Assembly (NCBI RefSeq): GCF_964275005.1
Contig: NC_092698.1
Span: 37,680,597-37,744,596 of the forward strand
Source: Diadema setosum
Taxonomy: Eukaryota
DNA: 64,000 nucleotides
Reading direction: 5' to 3'
A program made the position numbers and the translations under genes. The notes beneath the pieces are model-generated. The model was given only the letters and a program-made list of their open reading frames with translations. It was not told the DNA's origin and made no database searches. Positions within the stretch are counted from its first letter, which is position 1. Every line of letters begins with the position of its first letter. Shown piece after piece: positions 5,246 to 63,772 of this stretch.

Positions 5246-5339
5246 TTTTAACCCGGTGAGGATGAGTACCAAGTATAGGGCAGGTGTCTATGGGAATTGT
5301 GTGTTGTAGCAAAATCAGTTCGTCCTCAATAGGTTAAAG
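5246..5339. mobile_element. Family-D mini-MITE (~95 bp), TIR TTAACCC[AG][GT]TGAGGAC
   Basis: ttttaacccggtgaggatgagtacc...gcaggtgtctatgggaattgtgtgttgtagcaaaatcagttcgtcctcaataggttaaag. Copies are at 23521-23614 (reverse orientation) and 35937-36031. Confidence 0.6.
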
Positions 5340-23520: not shown

Positions 23521-23614
23521 TTTTAACCCATTGAGGACATTTGATTTTGCTACAACACACATTTCCCATAGACACTTGCCTGAGTATACTCGGGACTCGT
23601 CCTCAATGGGTTAG
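23521..23614. mobile_element. Family-D mini-MITE copy (reverse orientation)
   Basis: Its reverse complement matches 5246-5339 (aagtgtctatgggaaatgtgtgttgtagcaaaatcaa). Confidence 0.55.
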
Positions 23615-24164: not shown

Positions 24165-27100
24165 ATGCACGTATCTTGTGGTGTAGCCACTTTTTGTCAG
24201 GTTACCTTCAGTACTAAACAGTGGAGAGGAGGTTATATGGACATTGGCTCTTTGCATTTCAGAAACTAAAGGTCTGTTGGCTTTTCATCATTGATTAACT
24301 GGAGGATTTCACCATAACCCGGACACACCTCACATACCTTTCTCCCATGTATTATCTCACACATCCCTGATTTCAAGAGAGATAAATAGAGAAAGAAACA
24401 ATTGTTGTTCCTTTCTGTGTTGGTCACCCCAAACAAACTTTTCTATGTTTCTGTCCTATTTCTATCTGTACTCTGCACCTTGTCTCTACTGTATCTTTCT
24501 CTATGGAAGTTATTTCTCTTCTAGTTGTGCTCTTGTTTGAGAGCATGTTTTTCCAGCCAATCTCTAAATTCCGCTCCAAATTCAGGTCACATGGATTATG
24601 ATTTGAGAGTCTTCCTGAATGGGGCTATTAGTATTTTGTGGGGAGTGGCTGTCATATTGACAGCATTGTAAACTGAAACAGGAGACAGGCTAAATTGTAC
24701 TTCCAGAGTTATAACAACAAAGAAACAAATTACAACAATTGATTTATGATGATACATGTGACAGGAACTCTTGAAACTGAATTGAAAAAAAAAAAATCCC
24801 CTTTGGCAACTTATGAAGTACCTGTCAAAGTTTGTTGATAGTGTGTTTTGAAATAACAGAATATTGAGGAAATAGGTAAATTCTTCTAACAAAAATAGAT
24901 AGCTGTAATGCTACTATCTATGCTGTTGCAAGTTAGATTCTTAAAATAAAGTTTAGTAGCAGATGAAAAAGAAAAATAAATTTTCATATCTCTTCTTATC
25001 TCAAGGCTAGGAGAGGCTTCTTCTTTTTTCTTAATGTTGGCCCTTTAAGAAAAAAAATTGTCCTGACTTGGCACAGACTGTCTCACCTGGGCCCCGAGTT
25101 TCCTGTGCAGGTCTACGTCATGGTGAAGTTAAGATACATGGCTCACTGCTGTTCTCGTTTCCTGTCATCCCAACTTACCTTGGCAAGACCCGACATGTTA
25201 TCTCTTTCTCCAGCTATCACGCAGAGAACCCATCGGAATGAGACATTGAACAGGAAACATCCAGAGCAGTCATGAAATTTTCATCCTTGACTTTTATTTC
25301 TCCTCTTCATACTTAGATATTAAAGAAGTAGAAATTTTATGACACAGACAAGCATTTTTCTCTTTCTTTTATAGGAATGTTGAGGTCTCATATTCAGGAC
25401 TGTCATGAATGGTAGCAATCAATCAAATTCTTTCTTTATTTTTTTTTTATTTGCTATGATTTTGTGACAGTTAAATGCAACCACTGACTTATGAGTAACT
25501 TCCTTGTCGAAAGTCATTTAAAGAGCCTCACAATGACCTGCCGTAAATTTGGGCCAAAAGGAAATTTATTGATTTCTCTACGCAGGTTATAGTTTTCATG
25601 TCAGGGAATTGATCTGTATGACAGTTCATATGAAAAGAGAAGATTTGTTGTTGTTGTTGTTGCTCTTTTTAAAGAGCATGATATACATGTACCTTACTTG
25701 TGCCCCTGTGGGGTGGTCATCCATACCTGTTTATAAAGTATTGGGCAATTAAACCTCTTCACTTTCTCCTCATGGGAAATGAAGGGAAATCCCATGTACT
25801 TGAGTTGTGTTTCACTAGTTCTGTACTGTCCTTTCACGCAACACTTTATCTCTATACATAAGGGGGGGGGGGGGGGGGCTTGCCAGCACCCATCATTTGT
25901 CAGACTGACCCTTATAGAAGTAGAACTGAGGGCCTTTTTGTTAGTGTCAGATGCAGTGTCCACAGGACCTAGTCACCTTCTGTATGGTAGTGTGGATGTT
26001 TCCATCTGCACTTTAGATTTGACAAGTCATGTGCAGGAGCAGATGTGAGCTGTGTTGTGTTGTGGAACATTCCCATTCGACTAGATCATCTCACACTAGG
26101 GTTTTCCACAAACAACATCCCGTAGGTCTAACAGGTGCCGTGTCTGGTTGTGGTGGGAACTTTAAGTTCATGTAGCCACAGTGACCACATTGACTTCTCA
26201 TGTCTATTTTCACTCCAGTGTTGAAGTTTTTTTGTGGCACATTGAAGATTACTCACGCTTGACCAACCAAAATGAACGTCATTTATCGTGCATGCAAGCA
26301 AAAGTGAAGTTTTTTGCTCCCTCCTAATACCCTCAGTATCTCTCACTAAAAACACAAGACTCTGTGCACCTCATGTAGGCCTCTAACAGGTAGAAATTTT
26401 AGATATGATATAAGTCACTAGATGAGTTAGTTTTCAAAGGTGGCAAGCTATGTCTCAGATGACTAAAAGTGACCAGTCATCTTCACTTAGGCAACAAGCG
26501 AAACAGATGACACCGAAGTGATTTTTAAGTATCGAGGAAGCTTACTTACCTTATTTATTTGTTTCCATGACAACTTGTCAGACTTACTGACAGATTCAAA
26601 TTTAAACCCTGAAAACAGGTCTCTGATGACAAAACTGGAATCTTGAATAGAACCAAGTCTCTTGTGTTGATTGTACTTTGTAGAGATCATCAGAATTACT
26701 TGCTATGAGGAAATATGACACAAATTACTTAGGTAGCTGGAGACAGAGTGAGAAAAAAAATAATTGGTCAATTTCCCTGCCATCTCAAAGGTTAATGCAT
26801 GTATTATCCAATAAACAACTTCTTTGAATTAACTTCTTCGATTGGTGTAAAGTTGTTAAAGGGAAGGTAAACCCAAAGAGCAATGTGGATTGAGTGAAAG
26901 CAGCAACATTAGTAGAACACATCAGTGAAAGTTTGAGAGAAATCGGACAATCGATGCAAAAGTTATGAATTTTTAAAGTTTTGGTGTTGGAACCGCTGGA
27001 TGAGGAGACTACTAGAGGATATGACGTATGAGTGGACAAAAATACAAAGAAAATATAAAGGATATTCAACAAAAATTCACTTTTCTAGAATTATGAAAGA

Positions 27101-27239
27101 GCAGTGGACCAACCGCTTTCAGAAAGCAGGGGGAATAATTGCTACCCTTAACATATGTCAATATCAAGTTGATGGATTTTGTAATTTTCATGAAAAATGG
27201 ATTTTTGTAGTATTTTCTTTATATTTTCTTGATATTCCC

Positions 27240-29485
27240 AGGTAACATGCCAATATGGGACCCATATGGGCATACTCCGGGCCACGTGGGCCATCTGGGT
27301 TAGGGTGAATCCCATATGTATTTAGCGTCAGACCCATATGGGATAACCCATATGGGTTTTTTAATGGGACTGCCCATGTGGGTATCATAATGGAAATGAA
27401 CTGGGCAAACCCATCTGGGTAAGATTGTTAAATGCCCATATGGGTTACACATGTGAAAAAAATGGGTAGACCCATCTGGGTGAGATATGTAAATACCCAT
27501 ATGGGTCTCATATGGGTATAAAATGGGCAAAGCTACCTGGGTAAAATATGCAATGCCCATATGCATACCATATGGGAATCTACTGGGTGAACCCATCTGG
27601 GTAATAAATGTAAATATCCATATGGGCTTCATAAGGGAATGAGCTGGGCATACCCATCTGGGTAAAATAAGTGAATGCCCATGTGGGTTTCGTGTGGGAA
27701 ATAAATGGGCAAACCTATCTGGGTGAGATATGTAAATATCTACATGGGTTTCATATGGGAATAAGCTGGGCAAACCCATCTGGGTAAAATAAGTAATTGT
27801 CCATATGGGTTACACATGTGAACAAAATGGGTAAACCCATCTGGGTGAGATGTATGTAAATGCCCATATGGGTTTCATATGGGTATAAATTGGGCAAAGC
27901 TATATGGGTAAAATATGCAAAGCCCATATGCATACCATATGGGAATCTACTGGGTGAACCCATCTGGGTAATAAATGTAAATATCCATATGGACTTCATA
28001 TGGGAATGAGCTTGGCATACCCATCTGGGTAAAATAAGTGAATGCCCATGTGGGTTTCGTGTGGGAATAAAATGGGCAAACCCATCTGGGTGAGATATGT
28101 AAATATCTATATGGGTTTCATATGGGAATAAGCTGGGGAAACCCATCTGGGGTAAAACAAGTAAATGTCTATATGGGTTACACATGTGAAATAAATGGGC
28201 AAACCCATCTGGGTGAGATATGTAAATATTTATATGGGTTTCATATGGGAATGAGCTGGGCAAACCCATCTGGGTAAAATAAGTAAATGACCATACGGGT
28301 TTCACATGGGAAATGAATGGGGAAAACGGTCTGGGCAGTACATGTAAATGCCCATATGGACTCCATATGGGAAGTAAATGGGTTAACCCACCTGTGTAAT
28401 ACATGTAGCCTATATGCCCATATGGGCTCCATATGGGCATGGAATGAGCAAACCCATATGGATGAGATATACAAATGCCCATATGCATACCATATGGGAT
28501 ACAACTGGGCAAACCGATCTGTGTGAGATCTGTCAATTTACATATGGGTTTCATATGGATATGAAGTGGGTAAACCCATCTGGGTAAGAGCTGAACATAT
28601 CTTTTTTGGTAACATATGGGAAAGAACTGGGCAAACCCATCTGGGTAAGAGCTGACCATATCTTTTTGGGAACCTTATGAAAAAAAAAAAACACTAGGCA
28701 AACCCATCTGGGTAATAGATGAACATATCTATACCATATTAGAGCGAACTGGTCAACCCATCTGGGCAAGAGATGAACAAAATTATGTGGGTACCATATG
28801 AGCATAAATTTGGCAAAACCCATCTGGGTAGGAGATAAACATATCTATTTGGGTACCATATGGGAATGAACTGAGCACAAATCTGGGTAGGAGATAAACA
28901 TATCTATGTGGTACCATGTTGGAATGAACTGGGCAAACTCTTGAGTAAGAGCTGAACATATCTTTTTGGCTACCATTTGGGAAAGAATTGGGCAAACCCA
29001 TCTGGGTAATAGATGAACATATCTATGTGGGTATCATATTATTGGAATGAAGTGGACAACCAATCTGGGTAAGAGATGAACATATCTATGTGGGTGCCAT
29101 ACGGGAATGAACTTGGTAAACCCATCTGGGTTAGAGATGGACATATCTATTTGGGTACCTTATGGGAATGAACTGGGCAAACCCATTTGGGCAGGAGATC
29201 AACATATTTATGTGGGTAAAATATTGGAATAAACTGGGCAAACCCATTTGGGTAGGAGATGATGTGGGTACCATACTGGAATGAACTGGGCAAACCCATC
29301 TGGGGAATAGATGAGCATATCTATTTGGGTATCATAGGGGAATGACCTGGGCAAACCCATCTGGGGAATGGATGTAAATGCTTATATGGGTTTCATATGG
29401 GGTCAACCTGGGTAGAACCATCTGGGTAAGATATGCAAATGCCCATATGGGATTTACATGGGAATGAACTTGGTAAACCCACCTG
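27240..29485. repeat. Satellite-like tandem array with a ~60-bp unit containing CCCATATGGG and ACCCATCTGGGT; higher-order repeat of ~375 bp (e.g. 27409-27786 vs 27786-28160); a variant unit from ~28560
   Basis: The motifs recur with regular spacing. Spurious stop-free ORFs appear in the window's six-frame ORF track (27300-29001). Confidence 0.8.
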
Positions 29486-32400
29486 CTCATCATAACACCC
29501 CTACCTGAAAATGGAACTGACCCAGAATTTGAAAAGAGGGTCCGGTTCATGCCCGTTATGCAGTGCAGTATATGCATTGGCATTAGGACTGATTGATCTC
29601 CTTCAGTACAGTCAGAGCTTGGTGATCATCTGTCTTCGCCTCATTTTAGGTAAGTAGATAAACTTATTTTTGTCAGCATGTTGTATTTAAAGTACCTAAG
29701 ATGTTGATTGCAAGTTATTGAAAAAGATAATCCCAATTCGGCAAGCTATAAAGGCAATAACAAATATGTAAGTTGGGATGGTATGTGAGCATGTTGCCTC
29801 CATGGATCATCCATAGAATATTATACATGAAGATAGGTGTATTCAAAGGTTGTAGGCCTGCTATGTCATATGATTTTGTTTAATTCTAAATATTGCTTTA
29901 TAGATTTGATTTGGGGTTTAATCTCATACTCTGTGTATAGAAATTAATGCTGTTTAGCATTATTTCATTTTCATTTCAATACTTCAGATCACTGAGTTTC
30001 ATTTAAACAAAATGGAGTAACAGTATTTGAGAAAACATTTACGCATACAGAATTTTACAAATAATTGCAATAAGGGAAAACACTAGCTGTGAGATGTATT
30101 GAAACAAAGGGAGCTGATGAAAGCACTCGATCAGTGATTTTAATTGCAGTTCACTCATAGTTTAAAGTATGCATTATGATGATATCAAATCAGAAATTAC
30201 GTTTTTACATATTATAATGGAAACATTAACTATAGGATAACTAGACTCGCTATTTCCGGGTTCACCACAAAAGCCCAAGTGGAGAATTAAGTTTATGCGC
30301 AGTACTGTGTAATGGTTTGGTATGAACACGTCCCACACAGTATTGGTAGTATACAGCTTTTTAGTATTCAATCCTGAACCATCTAAACACACCCACACCG
30401 TACGGTACTTAGTATGAGGAGCTTGCAAGGTCATTCAACCTCCCCAACTCCACAGCATCTCTGCAGAAGGCTGTGGTCAGTTGTTTGGGTTATAAAGTCA
30501 CAAAGGTCACATTCCATCAGGGAGACTCACCTCCCTGATTCCATAAGAAAACAGTCTCAAATGAGTGGACAACATAATATATGCATATTACCTAAAGCTT
30601 GGCTCTATTAATGTACAACTGGAAAGCACAAGTATTTTTTGCAGTTACCATAACCAAATACTAAGCGTGTGAGAAAGAGTCTTAGCTTCTGAACAGTATT
30701 GCAATTAGTTTTACTGTGACATGCATAAAATGTATTTAGGAGGAGATCTGAGTGAGTGAAGCCTAACTGCGATTTTCATGCTCCTGTATTATCAGAGATG
30801 TGTATATACAACGTGTACGTAACACTTTAAATAAACACACGTATATAGGCCTACGTTTCACAGTAGTAATCAGTATAGCAGTGGCATTTGGAAATAATTA
30901 TATGAAAAGAAGTTAGGCCTACTGATATTTGTGTCATCATAGCTCTAGTTGGCATATTTTTTTCTGTCTACTGTAAATATGTTTTAATAGTTTATGTTGT
31001 TTAAGTTGTATTACTCCTTCTCAAAAGAGGTAATTGATAAGCATAATTTTCCCTCTTATGATAGAAGTACAATTGTAAGATAGTTTGGGGGTTTAAAGGC
31101 TATCTAGTGTATTGTTATGTCTCAAATTCCTTCTAAGAAATAAGTCATGTATAGGTTTATAAATCATACCAGATTATGAGCTTAAATAGATTTAATTTAC
31201 AGGCCCTACTGGTAGTCAATATCGAGTAAATAGCAATCAATTGTAGGTTTAACTTCATATCGTTTGTCCAAAATATTTATTGACCACTCGCAATCTTTTT
31301 TTTTTATGTGTACACATATTCCTTTCTCCGTGTCTGCCTTTCTGTTCACTTAATCAAATTATACTCAAAATTTACTCAAATTATAGCTTCTCCTAAATCT
31401 TAACTGTCATTTACTGTTTAACGGATAATCAAAACTTGTCCTTTGATCTTCCTGGGTTTGTTTTACAATCAAATGAATTAAAAGATTCATTCAAAAAAAA
31501 AATCTTCGTAATGAGATGAGGTGTAAGTTGATATCTTTCTACTCACCCTCAAGCAGTAACTTATTTTGCAATGTTCTAAGTCGTTTATCCTAATTCGTAA
31601 TTGTTGCAATTTCCTTTGCTCTGGATGTATAAAAACTATATTTATCCCTTGACTGATTTTGTTTTCTTGTTTCACAATCAAATGAAGATTGAAATACATT
31701 GCATTTGCAATGTGTATAATTCGATATTATTTCCATTATATGAAAATGAAAACCAATGGTAATACATGTACACCGAAAATATTTCTGTCCCTCTCTTCCT
31801 CTTTCTCTCTCTCTCTTTCCCTTTGAAGCTTATTCATTTTGATAGTTTTAAACTACGTATATGACCCTCTAGTTATGAAGAAAGTCGAACAAATCCTGTA
31901 AGAGTATAGGCTAACAATTGTATACTGAATTTTTAAAACCCATGTAACTATGCATTCCTTTATACAGTCATGTATTCAAATACTGTACAATGTAATGTTG
32001 CATGCCTGTATCTCTCAATAATTGAATCTAGCAATATTTCTGATGAAAAACATGTGTAACACATTTTATATGAAGATTGTAATTCCATGAATATATTTCT
32101 CCCTCTGTCATTGCAGATCTGGTGAAGAGAAAAGATGGACAAACACAGCAAGACTTCACGCAGCATACATTTTAAGGTCTACACAATAAGAAATCAGAAC
32201 AGTGGAATAAAATAGCTGGATGGACAAAAACAAAGGCGGTTTGCAGCACAGGTTCAGGGAGAATTAGATGGCAACGCCTAAATTTCAAAAGTGCATAAAT
32301 TTTGACAAAATTGTGCAATTTTCTTCAAACCTTACTGAACTGTTCTTTTCATATTGCTGCATTCACTCAATCAACGTTTATTTTGGGTATTCCCCTTACA

Positions 32401-32877
32401 GAAGCTGTTAAAAAGATCTCACCATTTCTAGCTTTTACGCTTGTTTATCAAGTAATATTATATGAATGCCTATATTCAGCTGAGGGACACAAGACAACAG
32501 ATTTCAATTAGAACAATGCACAAATATATCCACTTTGAGAATAAGATACTTGATCTATTGAGTACATACATTCAAGAGTGAATTGAGGGGAACAATACTT
32601 CTCTATGTGTAGGTCATTGGTGGTGGTGGATGTACAGTGTATATACAGTATGTTTACATGGTATTTAGGTAGCTTTCGAAGATGTGCCACCTTACTAGGG
32701 CTGTTCATCGAAGAAATAAACAAACATTCTACACGCTAAGTGGACTGCTCATAACAGAGGTTTGATGTCAGTTTTCCATCAACTCAGTGTGCCAGTGTCT
32801 CCTGCCATTGCTGCTGGGCAAGCTGTGGTTAATCATAATGAGGTAGGCCTATTGACAATATGGTAAACTCACCGTTG

Positions 32878-33830
32878 GCAAAAATATTAGCCACGTTACC
32901 CAGATGGGACCCACGGTGTACCTATATGTGCTATCTTGGAGCCCCCATATGGGTCCCATGTAAATATTGGGTGCAAATTCCTAGGGGCTCCATATATGCA
33001 TACCCATGTGGGACCCATGCTAAAACCCCATCTGAAGCCCATATGGGAAACCCACATGGTGCCCACATATTTACCACATACATTACCAAGATGGGTCCCA
33101 TTGGGATCCAATATGGGTCATTTTGGATTGCCCATATGGGTCCCATGTAAATCTAGGGTGCAAAATCCTAGGGGGCCCGTATGGGCATACCCATGTGGGA
33201 CCCATGATGAAACCCCACACAAAGCCCATATGGGATAACCCACACAGTACCCACATATTTACCACATACGTTGCCCAGATGGGTCCCACAAGGAACCCAT
33301 ATGTGTCATTTGGGATCGCCCATATGGGTCCCATGTAAATCTTGGGTGCAAAATCCTAGGGGCCCCATATGGGCATACCCATGTGGGACCCATGATGAAA
33401 CCCCACACAAAGCCCATATGGGATAACCCACACAGTGCCCACATATTTACCACATACGTTGCCCAGATGGGTCCCACAAGGAACCCATATGTGTCATTTG
33501 GGATTGCCCATATGGGTCCCATGTAAATCTTGGGTGCAAAATCCTAGGGGCCCCATATGGGCATACCCATGTGGGACCCATGATGATTTCCCAGCTAAAG
33601 CCCATATGGGATAACCCACACAGTGCCCACATATTTACCACATACATTACCCACATGGGCCCCATCGGGAACTCATATGGGCCATCTGGGACAGCCCATA
33701 TGGGTCCCATGTAAATCTTGGGTGCAAAATCCTAGGGGTCCCATATGGGCATACCCATGTGGGACCCATATTCAAACCCATATTGGGCCCATATGCAACC
33801 CATATGGGCATGTTACCTGGGTTGTAGTCC
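32878..33830. repeat. Tandem array of ~180-bp unit, about 5 copies (e.g. 33283-33463), orientation opposite to the array at 27240-29485
   Basis: The unit tacccagatgggtcccac...cccatatgggtcccatgtaaatcttgggtgcaaaatcctaggggccccatatgggcatacccatgtgggacccatgatgaaacc recurs in tandem. ACCCAGATGGGT is the reverse complement of ACCCATCTGGGT from the left array. Confidence 0.8.
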
Positions 33831-34723
33831 ACTCATACGTCATAACCTCTAGTAGTCTCCTCATCCAGCGGTTCCAACACCAAAACTTTAAAAATGCATA
33901 ACTTTTGCATCGATTGTCCGATTTTCTTCAAACTTTCACTGATGTGTTCTACTAATGTTACTGCTTTCACTCAATCCACATTGTTCTTGGGGTTTATCTT
34001 CCCTTTAACTATGGGAACTACTCTTAAGGAATAATGGTTACATTTTTTTTCCCCGAAAGATCAAGCAAATAGTCTAATAGTTTGCATGTATCAAACAAGA
34101 AAAAGAATTTTGCGTATTTCATAAAAATATGTTTTGAAGCCATCAGATACAGGCAACAGAGGCCTTGTAGAGAAAACAGTTAGTTTTGGGTTTTGTACTT
34201 TCTGAATGATACGTATTTTGTTAATTGTTAGTACAAGTAAAATAATTTCTGCGCATCAGATGAATAACCATGGGAACTACTCTTAAGACTTAAAAGTGAT
34301 CAGATTTTTTTTTTTTTTTTTTTTTACACAAAGATCAAGCAAACAGTCTAATAGTTTACATGTATCAAACAAGAAAAAGAATTTTTCATATTTCATTACA
34401 ATATGTTTTGAAGCCATCAGATACAGGCAACAGAGGCCTTGGAGAGAAAACAATTAGTTAAGGTTGTTTCTTTTTCTGTACTGTCTGAAGAATATGTACT
34501 TTGGTCATTGCTAGTTAATGATTTCTAGGCATCAAATGAATTATGCAACCATCTGAAAAGTAATGGAAAGAGGTTTGTAAGTCTTACAAATGGAGAAAGG
34601 ATGATTATTTCATTTCTGTCATCAAAAGATGGGCGGCAGTGCAGTAGTAGCCAGGGCTTATTGGATAAATTTCCTACTACCACGTAGAAATCTAATTTCA
34701 GAAGAAGGCTATCTCACCCAAAA

Positions 34724-38566: not shown

Positions 38567-39132
38567 TTAAAGGACAAGTTCACCTTCATTAACATAAGGA
38601 TTGAGAGAATGCAGCAATATTAGTAGAACACATCAGTGAAAGTTTGAGGAAAATTGGACAATCGATGCAAAAGTTATGAATTTTTTAAATTTTTGTGTTG
38701 GAACCGCTGGATGAGGAGACTACCAAGGCTCGTGATGTCATATGAGTACAACAATATAAAGAAAATGTAAAGAAAATTCATCATATTTTCACTTTTTTCG
38801 CATTATAAAAGAGCACTTGACTTGCCTCTTTCTAAAGGCAATTGGAATAATATTACCCATAACATATGTCAGTAACGAGTCAAGGGAATGTGTACTTTTT
38901 TCAAAAGATGAAATTTTGTGAAATTCTCTTTATATTTTCCTTATATTGTTGTACGCATGTGACATCATACACTGCATTAGTCTTCTCATCCAGCGGTGAC
39001 TTCACAAAAACTTCAAAAATTCATAATTTTTGAACGGATTGTCCGATTTTCCTCAAACTTTCAATGATGTGTTCTACTAATATTGTTACATTCTCTCAAT
39101 CCTTATGTTAATGAAGGTGAACTTGTCCTTAA
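38567..39132. mobile_element. Intact family-B MITE (566 bp, long hairpin; TTAA at both ends)
   Basis: The termini ttaaaggacaagttcaccttcattaacataaggattgagagaatg and cattctctcaatccttatgttaatgaaggtgaacttgtccttaa are perfect inverted repeats. There is further internal self-complementarity, for example ggaaccgctggatgaggagac with its reverse complement gtctcctcatccagcggttcc. There is no ORF. Confidence 0.8.
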
Positions 39133-39220
39133 AGACATTTTGTTTGATTCCTTTTTACTCCTGCACTTCAGCCATATGTAGAAATTGTTCTAGGGCAATC
39201 ATCCCCTAGACAATTGCCCC

Positions 39221-39322
39221 AGACCCTGACCCTAACCCTAGTCCTAATCCTGAACCTAATCCTAACCCTAACCCAAACTCTAACCCTAAACCTAACCTTA
39301 ACCCTAATCTTAACTCAAACCT
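39221..39322. repeat. Degenerate telomere-like (CCCTAA)n tract
   Basis: ccctgaccctaaccctagtcctaatcctgaacctaatcctaaccctaacccaaactctaaccctaaacctaaccttaaccctaatcttaactcaaacc. This is the reverse complement of (TTAGGG)n with substitutions. It lies about 90 bp from the MITE at 38567-39132. Confidence 0.6.
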
Positions 39323-41983
39323 TATCACATGCCCTGATACGGTAGAAATTGTTGATTTGGCTATGCATCCGAAGATTGAAATGTTTCATTTTCTTCACTT
39401 ATTTCACTGGTTCCGATGAGTTATTATGGTATATCAAAGGCATGCTAAAATTTTTGGTTTTACAAAAATTCACACCTTTCCTTATAATTATAAAACTGGC
39501 AACTTCTTGATGATGGAAGGGGCTGCAATGTATAGATTTCCAGTGAATTTATTTGGAAAGTGAAAAATTCTGACCGTTATTTTCAGTACAAAAAGGGAGA
39601 GTATTTTTTTTTACTGACATGGGGTTAGTTTTCCATTTCTTAAAAAAAAAAAAAAAAAGATTTTCATACACAAAGTTGGGAGACATCATTTTTAACCATG
39701 CAAAATTTTGTGATGTGTACAAAGGGGATTATATGACCTTGAAGTATCATTTCTACTCAGCACACACACATCTCAACATCTCCATAATTATATATAATTG
39801 ATGCCATGCTGCACGTGAGTAATATTCAAGGTATACTCTGAAGATGTTGACAACATATTGTTAAAGAAGAGGCACCTTGGTGACTGCTGTACCACCTCTC
39901 TTTTTCTCATGGTTCCTGATACTGTTGCTCCAGTACCTCTTTGAAGCCTCCAAGATTCAGTTAGCTGATAATCAGCGTGATCTTCCATCATGTGATTGTA
40001 CTTGTGATACACTGCCCTTTACCTGTCCATGCAGAACTGACACAGTCCTTGCTGTGTGTATACGGATTTATTATTGGGTATTCTTTGCTTGGTATTGGAT
40101 TTCATTATCTGGGACTTTTTTTGGGTCTCGTTTCACCTCCAACTGCCATTATTCCAAGCTCTGAGGTTACAAAAGTGTAATTTTCTTCTCCGCCTTGTCA
40201 TGAGACCAGGAGGTACAGGGGGAATCAAAGGAACTGTGATCATGGGAGAAGGAAGAGTAAGTGGGACTAAGTTGCTGCAAAGATACGGATGCACCAATAT
40301 CCTCCTTTTCATGACAAATACTGTAAAACCAGAAATTTTTGTGTACATTCAATTTTACGAATTTTGGGAAAACATTCGCGAAATTAAAATGCGTGCAGAA
40401 GTTCGTGTCTACACCACGCATTGAATGCCACTGGCAATTCATGAAAATTCATGGCGTGAAAATTTTTTGCTTTACATCGCAAAAATCATTATCTTCATGG
40501 TATTTTTCCTTCCAAAATGTATGGTGTAAGCAGTCACTGTAATTTTTGGGAAATTTCTGAGCAAAAGTGTTCGAAAAAAATTGCTATTCCTGGCTGAATA
40601 ACTTTGAAATAATGATCAGTGAGATATATCACGATTTGAGACTGGAGCATAATTGCATTTTAGTATCAAGATTTTGTATAAAACTATTTATATATAGTAC
40701 ATGGTGAGGCAGTGATATCATCAACCCCCACATTTGCATATTCATGTTGACCCTTCAAGAAGTGTTTTTTGAAAATAAGCGAACTTTCACAATTTTATAA
40801 CTTCCTGAATATTTGTCTAATTTTATAACTTTTTAGAAGAACTGAGCATTTATTACTCTGAATCCTTATTTTTCTGTAGCTTAATATCGACAGAATATTA
40901 GAGACTTTTGTTGGAAGTATGACCACCTAGTGTACCTTCTTCAAAGTGGAAACATTGTTGAACAGTGCCTTTAAGCTGAATGTTTGTCTGGGAGGATTAT
41001 GATTGTGGTCATAGCATCCTACAACCCTCTCAGTCCAGAGCTAGGCCCCAAATAGTATGTTTAATAGCCAGTCAATGACACCCTCAAGGTTGAATCTTTA
41101 TTCTCATCTAATTCCCTCCTATAAATGAGTACAGCTGCCATCCTAGACTCACTAATCCAGGATTATGCTGTCTTGAGGACCCCAGCTATCCATTGCCCAA
41201 CTCTGTATGCATCAAATCGTATATACTGGATGAAGTGTAGGCATCTCAAAACAATATCTGTATGGTGTGTATGATGAATCAGACCATAGAACCAATTGTT
41301 TAGTCTCTCTTGATGCCTTGTTCTCTGTGTATTGATGGATGTTATGTTTCATCTGACAAAAGATAGTAATGAATTGCTAAAACCAAGACTTACTTTCCCA
41401 TTCAGTTTACAATGTTCAATTCTGTTTAGCACCGATTTCACTGGAAGGGTTTAATGTAGGTTGACACGATGAGCTAGTCATTTTGTAATACCTCATAAGA
41501 AACAAACAGTGACGTACTTTTGACGGACTGCTAATGGCAGAATTCCAATGAGGAGTGCAAGCATTCATGCAGACTTACCAATGTAAAGACTCAGATAGTA
41601 CTTTGTTTTGCAAATGCATGAAAGACTGCTATTTTGATTTAATACCGGTAGTAGGGATTTCCCCCCATGTGTTACACTCTGGATGAGAAGGAGAGAAGCA
41701 CATTGTGATATATAACAGTCAGACATGATAGACAATAATGAGTTCTGGGACAAAGTAGTGTGGCATTCAGAGTCAAAGTAAACATTGAAAGGTAAACAAG
41801 TTCAATCAAGAAAAATGTTCATTCCTGTTTAGTGAGATGTATCATTGTCTTTGTAAGGCTGTTGCACTTCAATACCTTTTTTTTTTCTTTTGCACATCAG
41901 AAGTGTTTACTCTGTGACTATGATTTGATTAATTACCAGGTACAGTTTCTTCTTCCTCTTTTCTTTCTTTTGTTTACCTGCAG

Positions 41984-48700: not shown

Positions 48701-49440
48701 TCAAAGCTGAACCTTGAAATCTACATCTATATATATATAAAACTTAAGACAAAGAAATAAAAAATTTATACATGTACAAAATTCTACGTCATTATTTACA
48801 CCAAACATCATATTAAAAGGCAAAAAGGTATATACCTTTTTGGTCTTTTCCTCTATGAAATCAAATAATTTTTTCCATAAAAGTAGTGTTTTAGGACAGT
48901 GTACAAATAGATGAAAAGCAGTTTCCTGTTCTTGACTACAAAACATACAGTCTGGGTGTTCTATTTTTTTAATCTTAAATAAGAATGCATTTAAACCAAT
49001 AATATCATGAAAAACCTTAAAATAAAAGGAACGAAGTTGTGTTTCAACAGTACATTTATAGTTATTCATATGAATAACATCCCACTGAACTGTTTCATCA
49101 TTAATGGAGAAGAGGTCTTTCCGCTTACCTATTCTTTTCTCACATGAGGAGTCACAATATACATTTCTTATTACCGAATAAGCATGTTTAGAATTTTTTT
49201 TTTTCACCAGCTCTGACACTATTTTATCAAACATATCTTCATCGGTATCCAAGGAAGAATCAAACCATGAAAGATAGATACCATTCATTAAAGAAAGGAA
49301 AGAAATCTGAAAACAAATGGGTGTTTGACGATGCAAACAAAATAGAATAAGAATTAGGAGTAGGAAAATGTAGAGTTTGTTGAAGAAGGCCGCTTGGGGA
49401 AAGAAGGTGAATTGTATTAAGAAGTGTGAATACAAAACAA
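48701..49440 (-). mobile_element. 5'-truncated non-LTR retrotransposon ORF2 C-terminal fragment with CCHC motif
   Basis: A 244-aa ORF on the - strand ends with HPDCMFCSQEQETAFHLFVHCPKTLLLW, a C-x2-C-x11-H-x4-C motif typical of the LINE ORF2 C-terminus. The poly-T run at about 48137-48152 on the + strand could be its poly(A) tail on the - strand. Confidence 0.55.
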
Positions 49441-50250
49441 AACAAAAATCATCTCTTAAATAGAAAAGATCACAGACGATTAAGAAGGAGAAGGGAAAAA
49501 ATGATACTCATGTCGATTAGTGCTCGAATTTTGCAGAACATGATTGATGCCACCTTTCTGCAAGAGCATGGATGGCGTCACTAAGAGCTCCATGGTTTAA
49601 GAAAGGAGATGGAGTGAAAACGAACAGGCTGACGCTGTTCATTCAAGGTCAGAATTAATCGAGAACACTCGGTGAGGAAACGATGAGGATGTAACCGAAG
49701 TACGATGATCTGAAGTAACGCGACTTGACCTTGTACGAGGACAACAGGATTTCCCCGCGTATGGAGAGAGCTGAGCTCGTGCGAAGGGATAAGCAGAGAC
49801 TCGGCAGGGGAGCGAGATGGAGAATGGTGCGAACTTTATTCAGTGCCGTCTTAATTTTTGATTTAATACGAAAATACACATAGGATCTACTGCTCAAAGG
49901 ACATAATTACCTTAAACCTAATACACAACACTCACACACGCATGCACGCAAACACACATGCAGAGTGAACCTCTTTTCGCTTTTAATTTTGTTTTGCTTT
50001 TGTCATTGCGTTTGCTTTTGCTTTTGTTCTTGAGTTTGTTTTAATCTATACACAAGCAGCGTTTACCCAGGACGGGGGGGGGGGGGGGGGTGAAAGATGA
50101 AAGTTGAGAAAATTATTTGCCGTCATGTACAGTTAGATATATATTGAACATGAAAACATGTCCACCGTGTGAAGGCTGACAGCTTTAATCAAACGTCTCA
50201 CTTCAGAGCCTGATGGTGCATATGAGATGTACTTATAGAACTATAGACCA

Positions 50251-54007: not shown

Positions 54008-54040
54008 ATAATAATAATAATAATAATAATAATAGTGGCT
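54008..54040. repeat. (AAT)n microsatellite; possible 3' tail of the minus-strand LINE at 54610-55655
   Basis: ataataataataataataataataat. Confidence 0.8.
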
Positions 54041-54609
54041 ACTTGTATAGCGCACAGGTCCACTTTTCAGTGCTCATGGCGCTTCAAAAATGAAAAATAT
54101 CATATATTTACATGCATATACATATTCAAACATTTCAACAAAGAAAAAAATGGTAAACAAAAGCAAATATATACCAAATAAAGAATACAACATATATCAA
54201 TTAAAAATACAATATTAATCCAATATTAAAGACATACAGCAATAACAGTCCTCAGTATGAAAGGAACAGATAAGTTTTAAGTTTGGATTTGAATGACTCT
54301 GTAGATGACAGTTCCCTTAAAGGCATAATTTACCATTTGCAGATGAAACAAAAACCCAGCATTAGTGCTTTAAAATAGTTCTAAAATGTGAGTTAGGGAT
54401 AGAAACAACCACTGTCAAAATTTGAATCCGTATAATCGATGTTAAGTGTTGTTAAATACACAAAATGTGAACAATAGTTATAATAAAAATGTTTCTAGAC
54501 TAAAGCGTATACAGTTACGGTTTACTGAGAAAAACCCTGATATCTCCTTTATATTTTAGGTTTTATTGCAAATATTTCATATGGTAGGATGTTTTATGAT
54601 ACAACAGAC

Positions 54610-55655
54610 CTACACATATGCATCAAATGTGATATCTTGAACATTTTTGAAATCACTGCTCCCAAAGGTAAACTGGACCTTTAACTGAAGAGGTAACTGA
54701 TTCCACAATTTTGGTCCCATAACGGAAAAAGCACGATCACCATACCCATGTTTTACTCTGGGTGTTTGGAGTAAGAATGCATCTGATGATGAACGTAGCC
54801 TTCGTGTCGGATTGTATTTTTGAACAGAATTACTTATGTATATTGGGGAAAAAGAATGAACTGAATGATGTACTAATAACAGAATCTTGAAAATAATCCT
54901 TTTTTCTACAGGTAACCAATGTAAGGAACGGAGAACTGGTGACATGGAATCAAACTTATTAGTAAAAGTTAACAATCGGGCAGCAGAATTTTGCAACCGT
55001 TGAAGTTTTGTGACATCTTTTTTTGAAAGATTACACAACAATGAATTCGAAAAATCCAACCGAGAAGAAATCAAAGCATGAATAAGTATCTCAGCTGCAG
55101 ATTTAGACAAATATTTCCTTATGAAACTTAAATTACGCAACTGATATCGAACATTCCGCTGAATATGAGTTACATGACTTCGAAATGACATTTCCTGATC
55201 AAATATGACACCTAAATTACGGGCTGTTTTCGACGGAGTAATGCAAGTGCTACCGATGTTGACATGACATGACTGATAATCAACTTTGCTTAACATATGC
55301 TTTGATCCCAATAACAGAAACTCAGATTTATCATCATTTAGTTTAAGGCCATTGGATGTAAGCCAAATTTTCAGGTCTTGCAAACATGCTTCGAGTTTTA
55401 CAATGGCGGATGACAATGAAGACACAGTGGGTTTAAAAGACAAATAAAGTTGTATATCATCCGCATAACAATGATAACTAATACAATGCTTGCGAAATAC
55501 TTCACTAATTGGTTGCATATACAGAGAAAAAAGCAGCGGGCCTCCAACAGAACCTTGAGGTACACCAAACTTTGTCATAGTTTTACAAGAGGTAGAATCA
55601 CCAATTCTGACATAATGAGATCGATCACATAAGTAGGATATAAACCAATCACCTT
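54610..55655 (-). mobile_element. 5'-truncated non-LTR retrotransposon (L2/CR1-type) ORF2 fragment: RT domain plus C-terminal tail
   Basis: The - strand frame reads ...SYLCDRSHYVRIGDSTSCKTMTKFGVPQGSVGGPLLFSLYM...YADD...LQRLQNSAARLL...LRSLHWLPV...RAFSVMGPKLWNQLP. These motifs are characteristic of L2-clade ORF2, as established for the family. The frame extends upstream of the first Met to about 55653, and there is no endonuclease or N-terminal RT. A possible 3' tail is the (AAT)n tract at 54008-54040. Confidence 0.7.
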
Positions 55656-62733: not shown

Positions 62734-63772
62734 TCAGAGGTCCAAACCTGTATCAATAACAGCCACATCTTCACTGGACGTTCCCCCGTAGAGCACGTCT
62801 AGGGCTCTCTTACAGTCACTCACTGTGGTCTTGGCAAGGAATTGGCACTTTAGCTGGTCTGAGAGGGACACGCCCCCCTCTTGGGATGCACTCCCTAACA
62901 GTGCTGAGATTGCCATCTGTGAGACAGCGTTGGCACGCTCCACCGCCAACCATCTCTCCAGTGCTCCATCCAGGGCACCTGGTGTCGCGGCATTCTCTGT
63001 AAGAAAGGTGGCAGGTGGGCCCCACAACAAGCACTGAAGTAGAGTCACGGCTTGATCACAAGTTAGCCTGTCTTCAGGCTTCTTAGTGAGAAGTTTGCAG
63101 GCAATGGTATGGAGGCCCTGGGAGAGAGGTGACTTGACAGGAATGTGGGGTAGATCTTCTTTGGCATAGTCAGAGATGATAAGGCTTGTGCGAGTTGAGA
63201 ATGGGTTAGCATGATGTAAGAACTCGTACACAAGGATACCCACATCAAATTCATGGCATTTTTGCTCCAGCTTGGATGCCACACCCCCCTCAGCTGGTGA
63301 CAACACAGGAGCCGCGGTTACTACTTCCGCTCCGATCAAGTGGTTGATGACCAGTCTCTGACCACCACCGGGCAGCCCACTGTTGACCAGCAGGAGGTGA
63401 TCCAACTTAAGGCTCTCCAGACACATGTGGTGGGATTGCAGCTGGCACAAACCTTGGCACAATTGCAGCAACATTGTGGCGACGTCTCGCTCATAGACAT
63501 CCGGGAGGCACTCATGCTTTTCTGCATTCTGAGTCACATACTCGGCAACGTTTACTGCCGGCAGACAGTCCGTGATGATGACGGCCGTCTCAAAGGAACC
63601 GTCTGGTTGGGGAGAACCACGAGACTTGCGCTGCTCCAGTAGTGAGGGGTTGATGGTGACAGTGTCTTTGGCAGCATGGCTGACTGAGATGAGGTTGGGT
63701 TGTGGAAACATGGATCTCGTAATGTCCGCCATGTGGAGTACTTGAGATGTCTTGCTGGGATTACAGCATACC
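62734..63772 (-). CDS. Terminal coding exon of a protein-kinase-like (probable pseudokinase) gene; partial gene, upstream exons lie outside the window
   Basis: A 332-aa ORF on the - strand (62734-63732) with non-repetitive, GC3-rich codon usage. It shows kinase C-lobe landmarks with degenerate catalytic motifs. The HRDLKxxN position reads CLESLKLDHLLL. The APE..DVWSLGVILYELL region reads SPAEGG...FDVGILVYEFLHHANPF. The subdomain XI region reads KKPEDRLTCDQAV. The frame stays open 13 more codons upstream of the Met, up to a minus-strand acceptor tttttatatttctgtag at about 63773-63789. The N-lobe is too short to be complete, so the exon probably begins at that acceptor. Confidence 0.6.

Follow-up and report, generated by a model that had tools for sequence, protein, structure and literature searches.

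The structure at 26856-34008 of the window (the whole 64,000-nucleotide stretch of Diadema setosum DNA that was analysed) is best explained as an ordinary nesting of two mobile elements, a Kolobok/T2-type hairpin MITE and the satellite-armed, foldback-like insert that it carries. The two are probably both non-autonomous DNA transposons, the satellite-armed one being of a separate family and having inserted later. The locus is bounded by TTAA at either end, and its terminal inverted repeats, which are 188 nt long (26855-27042 with 33822-34009), are 94% complementary (183 bp at 95% by BLAST). Together with collinearity with a neighbouring MITE at 38567-39133, this shows that the structure picked out in a preliminary description is real. 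The interpretation then offered stands in part. A single MITE is split by about 6.6 kb, the satellite arrays are of opposite polarity and the layout resembles that of foldback elements, but there is not one element and there is no long stem. The parts are:

26856-26859, unstranded: TTAA at the left, a copy of the outer MITE's target site as read from the sequence (the sibling MITE at 54321-54678 has a TTAA duplication)
26860-27042, plus strand: left outer arm of the Kolobok/T2-type MITE, with terminus AGGGAAGGTAAACCC and the 188-nt inverted repeat; arm profile 233.6 bits
27041-27236, plus strand: inner arms of the same MITE, left (27041-27090) and right (27187-27236), with the loop; 50-nt inverted repeat, 80%
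27237-33821, unstranded: nested non-coding foldback-like element of 6,585 bp, at a T/T step of the MITE right arm
27237-27271, plus strand: left terminus of the insert, the 15-mer CCCAGGTAACATGCC with two palindromic boxes; 35-nt inverted repeat, 89%, conserved in contig L008
27237-29485, plus strand: left satellite arm of G-rich polarity; unit of 61 bp, higher-order repeat (27379-28589) of 367 bp
29486-32877, unstranded: AT-rich middle segment of 3.4 kb, unique in the window; ORFs of at most 86 aa
32268-32389, minus strand: lone relic arm from a third T2-like MITE, in the middle segment; arm profile 62.2 bits, E = 1.3e-18; BLAST 74-78%
32878-33821, minus strand: right satellite arm of C-rich polarity, inverted relative to the left; 188-bp unit, 4.7 copies
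33787-33821, minus strand: right terminus of the insert, ending ...CCCATATGGGCATGTTACCTGGG; inverted repeat partner of the left terminus
33822-34004, minus strand: right outer arm of the Kolobok/T2-type MITE, 94% complementary to the left; arm profile 201.1 bits
34005-34008, unstranded: right TTAA, likewise read from the sequence
38567-39133, plus strand: reference small MITE of the same family, with TTAA at its left, AGGACAAG...CTTGTCCT, and TAAA at its right
54321-54678, plus strand: fourth TTAA/AGG-type MITE in the window, with a known empty site; mobility control for the outer family

The outer element has the traits of a T2-MITE: a TTAA target, an AGGRR terminus, and a non-coding sequence whose arms fold into a hairpin. 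AGGGA is present at both of its ends (terminus AGGGAAGG), with TTAA on either side. T2-MITEs are defined by their TTAA target and terminal AGGRR, and Kolobok by the RR motif; the terminal repeats of Xenopus Kolobok include AGGACAAGGAAAGCTT and AGGGGAACTATC (PMC6004289). The small MITE has the terminus AGGAC, and this is also how the Xenopus Kolobok A3/A4 repeats in the same paper begin. The outer ends are not of an undescribed kind, since TTAA, an AGGRR terminus and a long hairpin are the published T2-MITE/Kolobok signature (PMC6004289). The small MITE itself, whose two arms are 83.9% alike, folds as a DNA hairpin of −181 kcal/mol (z = −29.8). Duplication of TTAA on insertion is shown for the sibling MITE at 54321-54678 by a public empty site. 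In the window it reads ...GTTCCC TTAA, then AGGCATAATTTACC...GGTAAACTGGACCT, then TTAA CTGAAG, whereas a LINE copy without it (L003, 99% identical) reads ...GTTCCCTTAACTGAAG and has a single TTAA. As the target is always TTAA, its presence at both ends does not alone prove a single insertion event.

To the left of the insert 26887-27236 is collinear with 38598-38947 of the small MITE (79.9% over 354 bp, its part 27041-27236 corresponding to 38748-38947), and to the right 33837-33977 follows 38962-39102 in the same way (81.6%). The outer parts match, as proposed, the left and right halves of the small MITE, and 6,585 bp separate them; the right inner boundary is at 33821/33822 and not at about 33830. 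When 27237-33821 is excised in silico, what is left is a MITE of ~560 bp, 568 bp from TTAA to TTAA compared with 567 bp for its neighbour, with which it aligns end to end with 3 gap positions. The restored MITE folds into a single hairpin of −230 kcal/mol that passes through the junction. It is this collinearity after excision, and the one hairpin, that lead to the deduction that the split MITE is a nested insertion. Opposite the break in its right arm, the left arm of the MITE runs on without interruption. The insert is flanked by GATATT on one side and TTGTAG on the other, any direct repeat being at most 2 bp (the collinearity of the MITE leaves room for none longer), and this lack of a clear target duplication leaves entry by transposition no more than probable.

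The insert has ends of its own. A terminus of ~35 nt, comprising a pair of CCCATATGGG-type boxes at a spacing of 11 bp and then CATGTTACCTGGG, is present in inverted orientation at both of them. The window has just two copies of the 15-mer CCCAGGTAACATGCC, one exactly at each insert end and on opposite strands, and the initial 60 nt of the left end find their best match at the extreme end of the right arm when this is reverse-complemented. Satellites of 61 bp related to the left arm are present in at least five public marine contigs. The array in one of these, L005, is 96% identical to it (perhaps the same locus in another individual), and those of L006, L007 and L008 are 64–71% identical; the P0137 contigs are the L007 locus in other samples and provide no new termini. 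The unit consensuses align without gaps, and their CCCA boxes are invariant at unit positions 6, 17, 28 and 53. In the Tara contig L008, the source of the sole external terminus recovered, the 61-bp array ends ...CCATATGGGTCCCACATGGGCTTGCTACCTGGG and is followed by unrelated flank. On comparison of three ends, the ~35-nt terminus is common and similarity stops exactly at CCTGGG. [The L008 flank also begins with T, and the T/T pattern rests on two or three observations.] That related satellites occur in marine contigs, one with the terminus beside unrelated flank, is the reason for considering the insert to be an element family in its own right. The single composite element first proposed is accordingly two, as excision restores a ~560-bp MITE and the insert terminus recurs elsewhere beside a flank that is not MITE. 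The MITE arm profile has no match in L005–L008. Exact-pattern scans with the insert terminus and a conserved MITE arm gave 0 matches in metagenome and viral collections, a protein-word search gave no candidates for the ORF that spans the right array and the MITE arm, and exact look-up of ten element ORFs found none in the collection. There was no second complete copy of the insert in any collection searched, and a literature text search for the motif strings returned cloning primers only.

It is improbable that the whole is instead a single integrated Kolobok-family element with a Tetris-like layout, of which the small MITE at ~38.5 kb would be an internal-deletion derivative, as has been proposed for DAIBAM and Tetris. 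The layout does match that of Tetris, whose repeat ends are shared with a MITE (PMC4079207), and one deletion of 27237-33821 would yield the MITE form. However, the continuity of the left arm opposite the interruption of the right implies that the uninterrupted hairpin is ancestral, and the ends of the big element and the small MITE are only 74–80% alike, yet the contiguous-arm design is common to both. The insert terminus in L008 is also without an adjoining MITE arm, and there is no significant similarity between MITE arms and arrays. (Derivation of the arrays from the MITE arm was considered and rejected; the two have the 10-mer GGTAAACCCA in common, but their best alignment score, 20, equals the shuffled mean of 19–21.)

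The two arrays, one with a higher-order period, had been recognised earlier, with periods of ~60, ~375 and ~180 bp that are here corrected to 61, 367 and 188 bp. The left array has 34.6 copies of its 61-bp unit at 27379-29485, with the higher-order period of 367 bp at 27379-28589. The right array has 4.7 copies of a 188-bp unit at 32893-33769, the central units being 93–95% alike and the edge units 77–86%. Both are built of CCCA...TGGG boxes at 11-bp spacing and, as was noted at the outset, around the self-complementary decamer CCCATATGGG. Of its 21 copies in the 64 kb, 8 are in the left array and 13 in the right, against a shuffle expectation of 0.06. THAP-type sites have the form TXXGGGXW, and their density in the arrays is ~15 times that of other sequence, which is a consequence of the box motif itself.

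Four measures back the claim that the arrays are of opposite polarity. The left to right counts of CCCATCTGGG are 21:0 and those of CCCAGATGGG are 0:3; CCCA and TGGG number 43 and 108 in the left array, and 53 and 36 in the right; GC skew is positive in the left array (+0.216) and negative in the right one (−0.114); and a profile of the left monomer has near-full-length matches in the right array on the minus strand only, about one per 188-bp unit. The exact 12-mer ACCCAGATGGGT, which had been put forward for the comparison of the arrays, is absent. The arrays are not mirror copies of each other: inverted matches between them do not exceed 41 nt and k-mer sharing is alike in either orientation. 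Because the motif is palindromic, neither k-mer sharing nor local alignment of single units is informative about array orientation. Inverted arms were earlier thought to form a long stem, but the only pairing is that of the 188-nt MITE repeat and that of the 35-nt repeat of the insert ends. As the arms are organised in different units and have no more than short inverted matches in common, the term 'inverted arms' rests on the polarity statistics, the profile hits and the termini. An apparent left-type unit at 32862-32895 suggested that the middle segment had been inserted into a single array, but the profile gives no support for this.

The middle segment was described as having no ORF longer than 90 aa, and the longest within it is 86 aa. 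A six-frame search of 29400-32900 found no Pfam domain, and no transposase or Rep/helicase remnant, in agreement with the statement that no transposase is encoded. There are no Rfam families or tRNAs in the segment, nor is any of it repeated elsewhere in the window except for the relic MITE arm (32268-32389). The insert thus has the non-coding or variable middle domain that is a foldback trait. The setting inside a gene intron that was first described is tentative. Outside the element, the ten longest open frames from ~23 to 42 kb have no Pfam match; the closest exon that can be recognised as coding, one of a PEAK1-like pseudokinase, is at 62737-63771 on the minus strand.

Several established families were tried for the insert and set aside because of its ends or its duplication. 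Its CCC...GGG ends fit piggyBac but there is no TTAA, its CAG start fits hAT but an 8-bp duplication is absent, and reading it with TA, as for Tc1/mariner, breaks the inverted repeat. The TC...CTGG and a hairpin ~12 nt from the end fit a canonical Helitron, but the flanks are not A on one side and T on the other, and neither are they the AAA and TTT of Spy/PIF.

There is little likelihood that the insert is a Helentron-derived non-autonomous element (of HINE/DINE-1/pearl/DTC84 type) that entered at TT by a rolling-circle route. Its position, with a T on either side and no clear duplication, is in keeping with such an origin, as are short inverted repeats beside palindromes and tandem repeats, which are HINE traits (PMC4067079; PMC7492417; PMC3879986). 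HINE ends, however, are asymmetric, whereas those of the insert are symmetric and reach the boundary itself; HINE arrays are in one orientation and here they are of opposite polarity; and neither a microsatellite module nor a Rep/helicase remnant was detected in the insert.

Very unlikely is a one-off rearrangement, in which a non-mobile satellite-bearing block was copied into a break in the MITE arm by gap repair or ectopic recombination. A target duplication of at most 2 bp and the failure to find a second complete copy are what would be expected of it, and the middle segment, with its relic MITE arm, resembles ordinary AT-rich DNA. Yet the ends have an exact inverted match of 15 nt; in another organism a related array finishes in the same terminus, and there too the resemblance breaks off at an identical base; and symmetric, conserved ends are not expected from random capture. 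An assembly artefact joining repeats of different loci is scarcely credible, for though satellite arrays and MITEs are typical misassembly sites, the MITE halves fit exactly, the insert ends are mirror images at one point of the MITE, and the arrays have ordered higher-order structure with the usual decay toward their edges.

In the preferred reading, that of a MITE later entered by an element of another family, the outer element would be a T2/Kolobok hairpin MITE of ~560 bp, with AGGGA termini and arms of ~230 bp, presumably placed at TTAA by cut-and-paste, with a THAP/DDE Kolobok transposase acting in trans. Such an enzyme (DDE, THAP and H2CH) would come from an autonomous Kolobok partner with matching ends in the same genome. 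The 6,585-bp unit would later have entered its right arm at T/T, 183 bp from the right end, at no cost of sequence to the MITE and with a duplication of at most 2 bp. To its family would belong the inverted ~35-nt terminus, tandem arms of opposite polarity with CCCA/TGGG boxes spaced at 11 bp, and a non-coding middle. The arms may then have diverged separately via unequal exchange, the left to its 61-bp unit and 367-bp higher-order repeat and the right to its 188-bp unit. The phased palindromic boxes are putative binding sites for a dimeric transposase, and the composite could perhaps still be moved via the intact MITE ends.

A broader proposal, which is rather unlikely as it stands, is that the ~35-nt terminus and the 61-bp satellite with four phased CCCA boxes mark an undescribed foldback-like lineage of marine animals, one that makes no target duplication and whose arrays are platforms for a dimeric transposase. 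If that were so, an insert nested in a Kolobok MITE could be carried by a second, unrelated transposase, which would provide a route for the spread of satellite seeds. The locus is a base-resolved example of the entanglement of transposons and satellite DNA, in which the Kolobok MITE is the ruler that fixes the insert ends. Conservation of the 61-bp unit, the box spacing and the terminus across several marine organisms makes it a testable case for arrays that are maintained within a mobile element rather than being drifting junk. Annotators should mask two elements here, one nested in the other, and should call the locus neither a new composite transposon nor a classical foldback element.

Transposons with satellite arrays are well described, in Xmix/Xstir, Tetris/DAIBAM and pearl/DTC84/HINE (PMC6004289; PMC9659126; PMC4079207; PMC4067079; PMC7492417; PMC3879986). 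With Xenopus Xmix/Xstir (T2-MITE/Kolobok) the locus shares the TTAA target, an AGGRR-type terminus, long hairpin arms, lack of coding and tandem repeats inside a MITE (PMC6004289; PMC9659126). Xstir, however, is listed in a review as arising from the Xmix MITE itself, its source region being the terminal inverted repeat (PMC9659126), whereas here the arrays have no significant similarity to the MITE and were brought in by a separate element with its own conserved termini. Tetris of Drosophila virilis is foldback-like, has repeat ends in common with a MITE (DAIBAM) and is a proposed link to satellite DNA (PMC4079207). MITE-shared outer ends, tandem repeats running inward, a non-coding middle and the lack of a transposase are features of both (PMC4079207). 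In Tetris the repeats are within a single long terminal inverted repeat, whereas in the present case one element supplies the MITE ends and another, nested in it, the repeat arms; target duplications of Tetris are 8–10 bp (PMC4079207), compared with at most 2 bp for the insert, whose two arms, unlike those of Tetris, differ in unit length (61 bp and 188 bp).

The HINE/DINE-1/pearl/DTC84 group of molluscs, insects and sea urchin resembles the insert in being non-coding, in having satellite-like arrays with a palindrome per unit, and in having short inverted repeats near the ends; HINEs insert at TT with either no duplication or one of 'AA'. The 5′ subterminal repeat of HINEs, which has a complementary repeat close by, is 2–4 nt from the end and the 3′ one 38–60 nt, with a stem-loop between the latter and the 3′ end (PMC4067079; PMC7492417), and their tandem arrays are always in one orientation relative to the flanks (PMC7492417). 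The insert differs in its symmetric and strictly terminal ends, its arrays of opposite polarity and its 3.4-kb unique middle segment, and in being without a microsatellite module or 3′ stem-loop tail. Classical foldback elements (Drosophila FB, sea-urchin TU and Galileo) have inverted arms of tandem subrepeats around a middle domain, and the insert may be built likewise. The arm repeats of Galileo carry extra binding sites for its THAP transposase, according to work cited in PMC4079207. In contrast to those elements, the insert has arms too diverged for a long stem and no 7–10-bp target duplication. The term 'foldback-like' suits the insert only, and not the composite as a whole.

The composite at 26856-34008 is a nested insertion of one non-autonomous element within another; its structure is real and well defined, and is the product of ordinary processes. 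Removal of the 6,585-bp insert (27237-33821) leaves a MITE of 568 bp from TTAA to TTAA, versus 567 bp for the neighbouring MITE of the same family (38567-39133), and global alignment of the two has 3 gap positions. The restored MITE folds as a single hairpin (−230 kcal/mol) running straight through the junction. Both ends of the insert meet the same point in the right arm of the MITE, where the left arm is continuous. Since the right arm is broken at one point and its partner is intact, a complete MITE came first and was interrupted later. The outer pieces had been matched to the two halves of the neighbouring MITE in the preliminary description, and both are indeed collinear with it at ~80% identity (26887-27236 with 38598-38947, and 33837-33977 with 38962-39102).

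The outermost 188 nt on each side (26855-27042 and 33822-34009) form an inverted repeat that is 94% complementary, with TTAA at both sides of the element. Its ends read TTAA/AGGGAAGGTAAACCC...GGGTTTATCTTCCCT/TTAA, and those of the neighbouring MITE TTAA/AGGACAAGTTCACC...GGTGAACTTGTCCT/TAAA. T2-MITEs have a TTAA target and terminal AGGRR, Kolobok has TTAA and terminal RR, and full-length Xenopus Kolobok repeats include AGGACAAGGAAAGCTT and AGGGGAACTATC (PMC6004289). The T2/Kolobok sequence tests were positive for the outer element, whose ends are of Kolobok/T2 type. Mobilisation of the MITE would have been in trans, by a Kolobok transposase, an enzyme with DDE, THAP and H2CH domains (PMC6004289). 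As the composite retains intact MITE ends, its further movement is possible in principle.

The neighbouring MITE gives a near-perfect DNA hairpin on folding (−181 kcal/mol, z = −29.8). Arm identity is 94% within the composite, 84% within the neighbouring MITE and 74-80% between the two, and a profile built from these four arms found a relic fifth at 32268-32389. Between the two elements, the arms are strongly diverged in their outermost ~30 bp (26860-26890 versus 38571-38600) and well conserved over the next ~150 bp inward. Diverged arm ends with a conserved interior are the reverse of the usual pattern; the divergence points to subfamilies whose ends are recognised by the transposase in different ways.

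The window, which is animal DNA, has a G+C content of ~37%, and four further features of it are as follows.

48704-49507, minus strand: LINE reverse-transcriptase ORF with RVT_1 and zf-RVT
54321-54678: TTAA/AGG-type MITE of 358 bp, with ends AGGCATAATTTACC...GGTAAACTGGACCT, interrupting the LINE at 54009-55653
54613-55653, minus strand: LINE reverse-transcriptase ORF with RVT_1 and zf-RVT
62737-63771, minus strand: PEAK1-like pseudokinase exon, a 345-aa open frame resembling the C-terminal pseudokinase part of PEAK1/pragmin

The MITE within the LINE, a fourth TTAA/AGG element, was spotted by eye. A copy of the LINE, 99% identical, is present in an ENA marine assembly (contig L003, ERZ27290654), and there the insertion point is uninterrupted (...GTTCCCTTAACTGAAG...) with a single TTAA. 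This empty site means that TTAA is duplicated by elements of the TTAA/AGG type, which have been mobile in this lineage. The ORF at 54613-55653 has thousands of homologues, the nearest named ones being from a sea star and teleost fishes. A second ENA marine assembly, distinct from that with the LINE copy, holds a 96%-identical copy of the satellite. The PEAK1-like frame looks like a terminal coding exon; its top public matches are ENA contigs at 62% and 45% identity, and vertebrate PEAK1 comes next at ~34%. Copies of a short interspersed repeat (~60-90 bp), 79-81% identical, lie at 23523-23609, at 5278-5337 and at 4671-4754 of L001, a contig of a related organism (ENA ERZ26222911). About 90 bp to the right of the neighbouring MITE, at 39223-39324, there is a degenerate (CCCTAA)n telomere-like run. 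The DNA directly right of the composite forms a tandem duplication (copies at 34006-34264 and 34265-34541, with 82-96% identity), the start of which coincides exactly with the TTAA of the composite.

The insert, a discrete element, has ends of its own: it starts with the 15-mer CCCAGGTAACATGCC, which has no other occurrence in the 64-kb window, and finishes with its exact reverse complement. The inverted match reaches 35 nt and is the best for the left end in the whole right arm of the insert, in either orientation. The flanks, GATATT before and TTGTAG after, place the insertion at a T/T step with direct repeats of 2 bp at most. The insert would have arrived by transposition.

The tandem arrays described earlier inside each MITE half are present. 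By Tandem Repeats Finder, the left one has 34.6 copies of a 61-bp unit and a higher-order period of 367 bp, and the right one has 4.7 copies of a 188-bp unit. CCCATATGGG, around which both were proposed to be built, has 21 occurrences, all within the arrays, versus 0.06 expected; ACCCAGATGGGT, also cited in the preliminary description, has zero exact occurrences. That the arrays are oppositely oriented is agreed by several measures. The left arm is TGGG-rich (108 versus 43 CCCA; GC skew +0.216) and the right CCCA-rich (53 versus 36 TGGG; GC skew −0.114), left-to-right counts are 21:0 for CCCATCTGGG and 0:3 for CCCAGATGGG, and a profile of 20 left monomers finds near-full-length matches (model positions 1-59) in the right array on the minus strand only, about one per 188-bp unit. 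Its plus-strand matches there are mostly shorter and centred on palindromic boxes. Neither array is a mirror copy of the other. The most frequent half-box spacing in both arms is 11 bp. Right-arm units are 93-95% alike centrally and 77-86% at the edge, the pattern usually seen where unequal exchange has homogenised an array. Inverted matches between the arms reach 41 nt at most, and so no long stem is expected from the whole element.

The middle segment (29486-32877) is AT-rich, with ORFs of at most 86 aa. Searches of it gave neither a Pfam domain, in all six frames, nor an Rfam family or a tRNA, and, within the window, no further copy of any part except the relic MITE arm. An open frame at 29486-29652 ends at a GTAAG donor-like site, and an AG acceptor-like site lies downstream (32118-32176). 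The two stretches could splice to an ORF of ~65 aa (MELTQ...QHTF*) without homology support, probably by chance.

DNA pattern scans of metagenome and viral collections and a protein-word search gave no matches. When the 307-aa open frame in the left arm was used as the query of a full HMMER search, five spurious 'proteins' came up, translations of similar repeats. Of the contigs that encode them, L005 is 96.0% identical to 27655-28227, and three Tara Oceans marine metagenome contigs (L006, L007 and L008) are 64-71% identical over 700-900 bp. All four have 61-bp units, and the unit consensuses align gap-free with invariant CCCA boxes at positions 6, 17, 28 and 53. L008 includes an array end (...CCATATGGGTCCCACATGGGCTTGCTACCTGGG/TAATTAACC): the last ~35 nt are common to it, the right end in the window and the reverse-complemented left end, and all diverge exactly after CCTGGG. 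The T2-MITE arm was sought in the L008 flank and is absent. With a terminus lacking the MITE arm, and conserved units, the terminus and 61-bp arm constitute a family independent of the MITE, in more than one organism. At 1118-1415 of L007 the array adjoins another tandem repeat, of ~128-bp unit, and each unit holds a motif like the insert terminus (ATGCCAATATGGGGCCCATATGG) in opposite orientation; the arms of the insert family may therefore be modular.

Repeats in Galileo and Tetris have been proposed as binding sites (PMC4079207), and by analogy the phased palindromic boxes of the insert may be binding sites. Among described systems, Xmix/Xstir, Tetris/DAIBAM and the HINE/pearl/DTC84 group come closest. 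The insert is like foldback elements in layout, but not in their 8-10-bp target duplication. It has the TT target and the absence of duplication in common with HINEs, though not their asymmetric ends or single array orientation, its two arrays being opposite. It has the look of an uncatalogued element in the foldback-like, satellite-carrying class.
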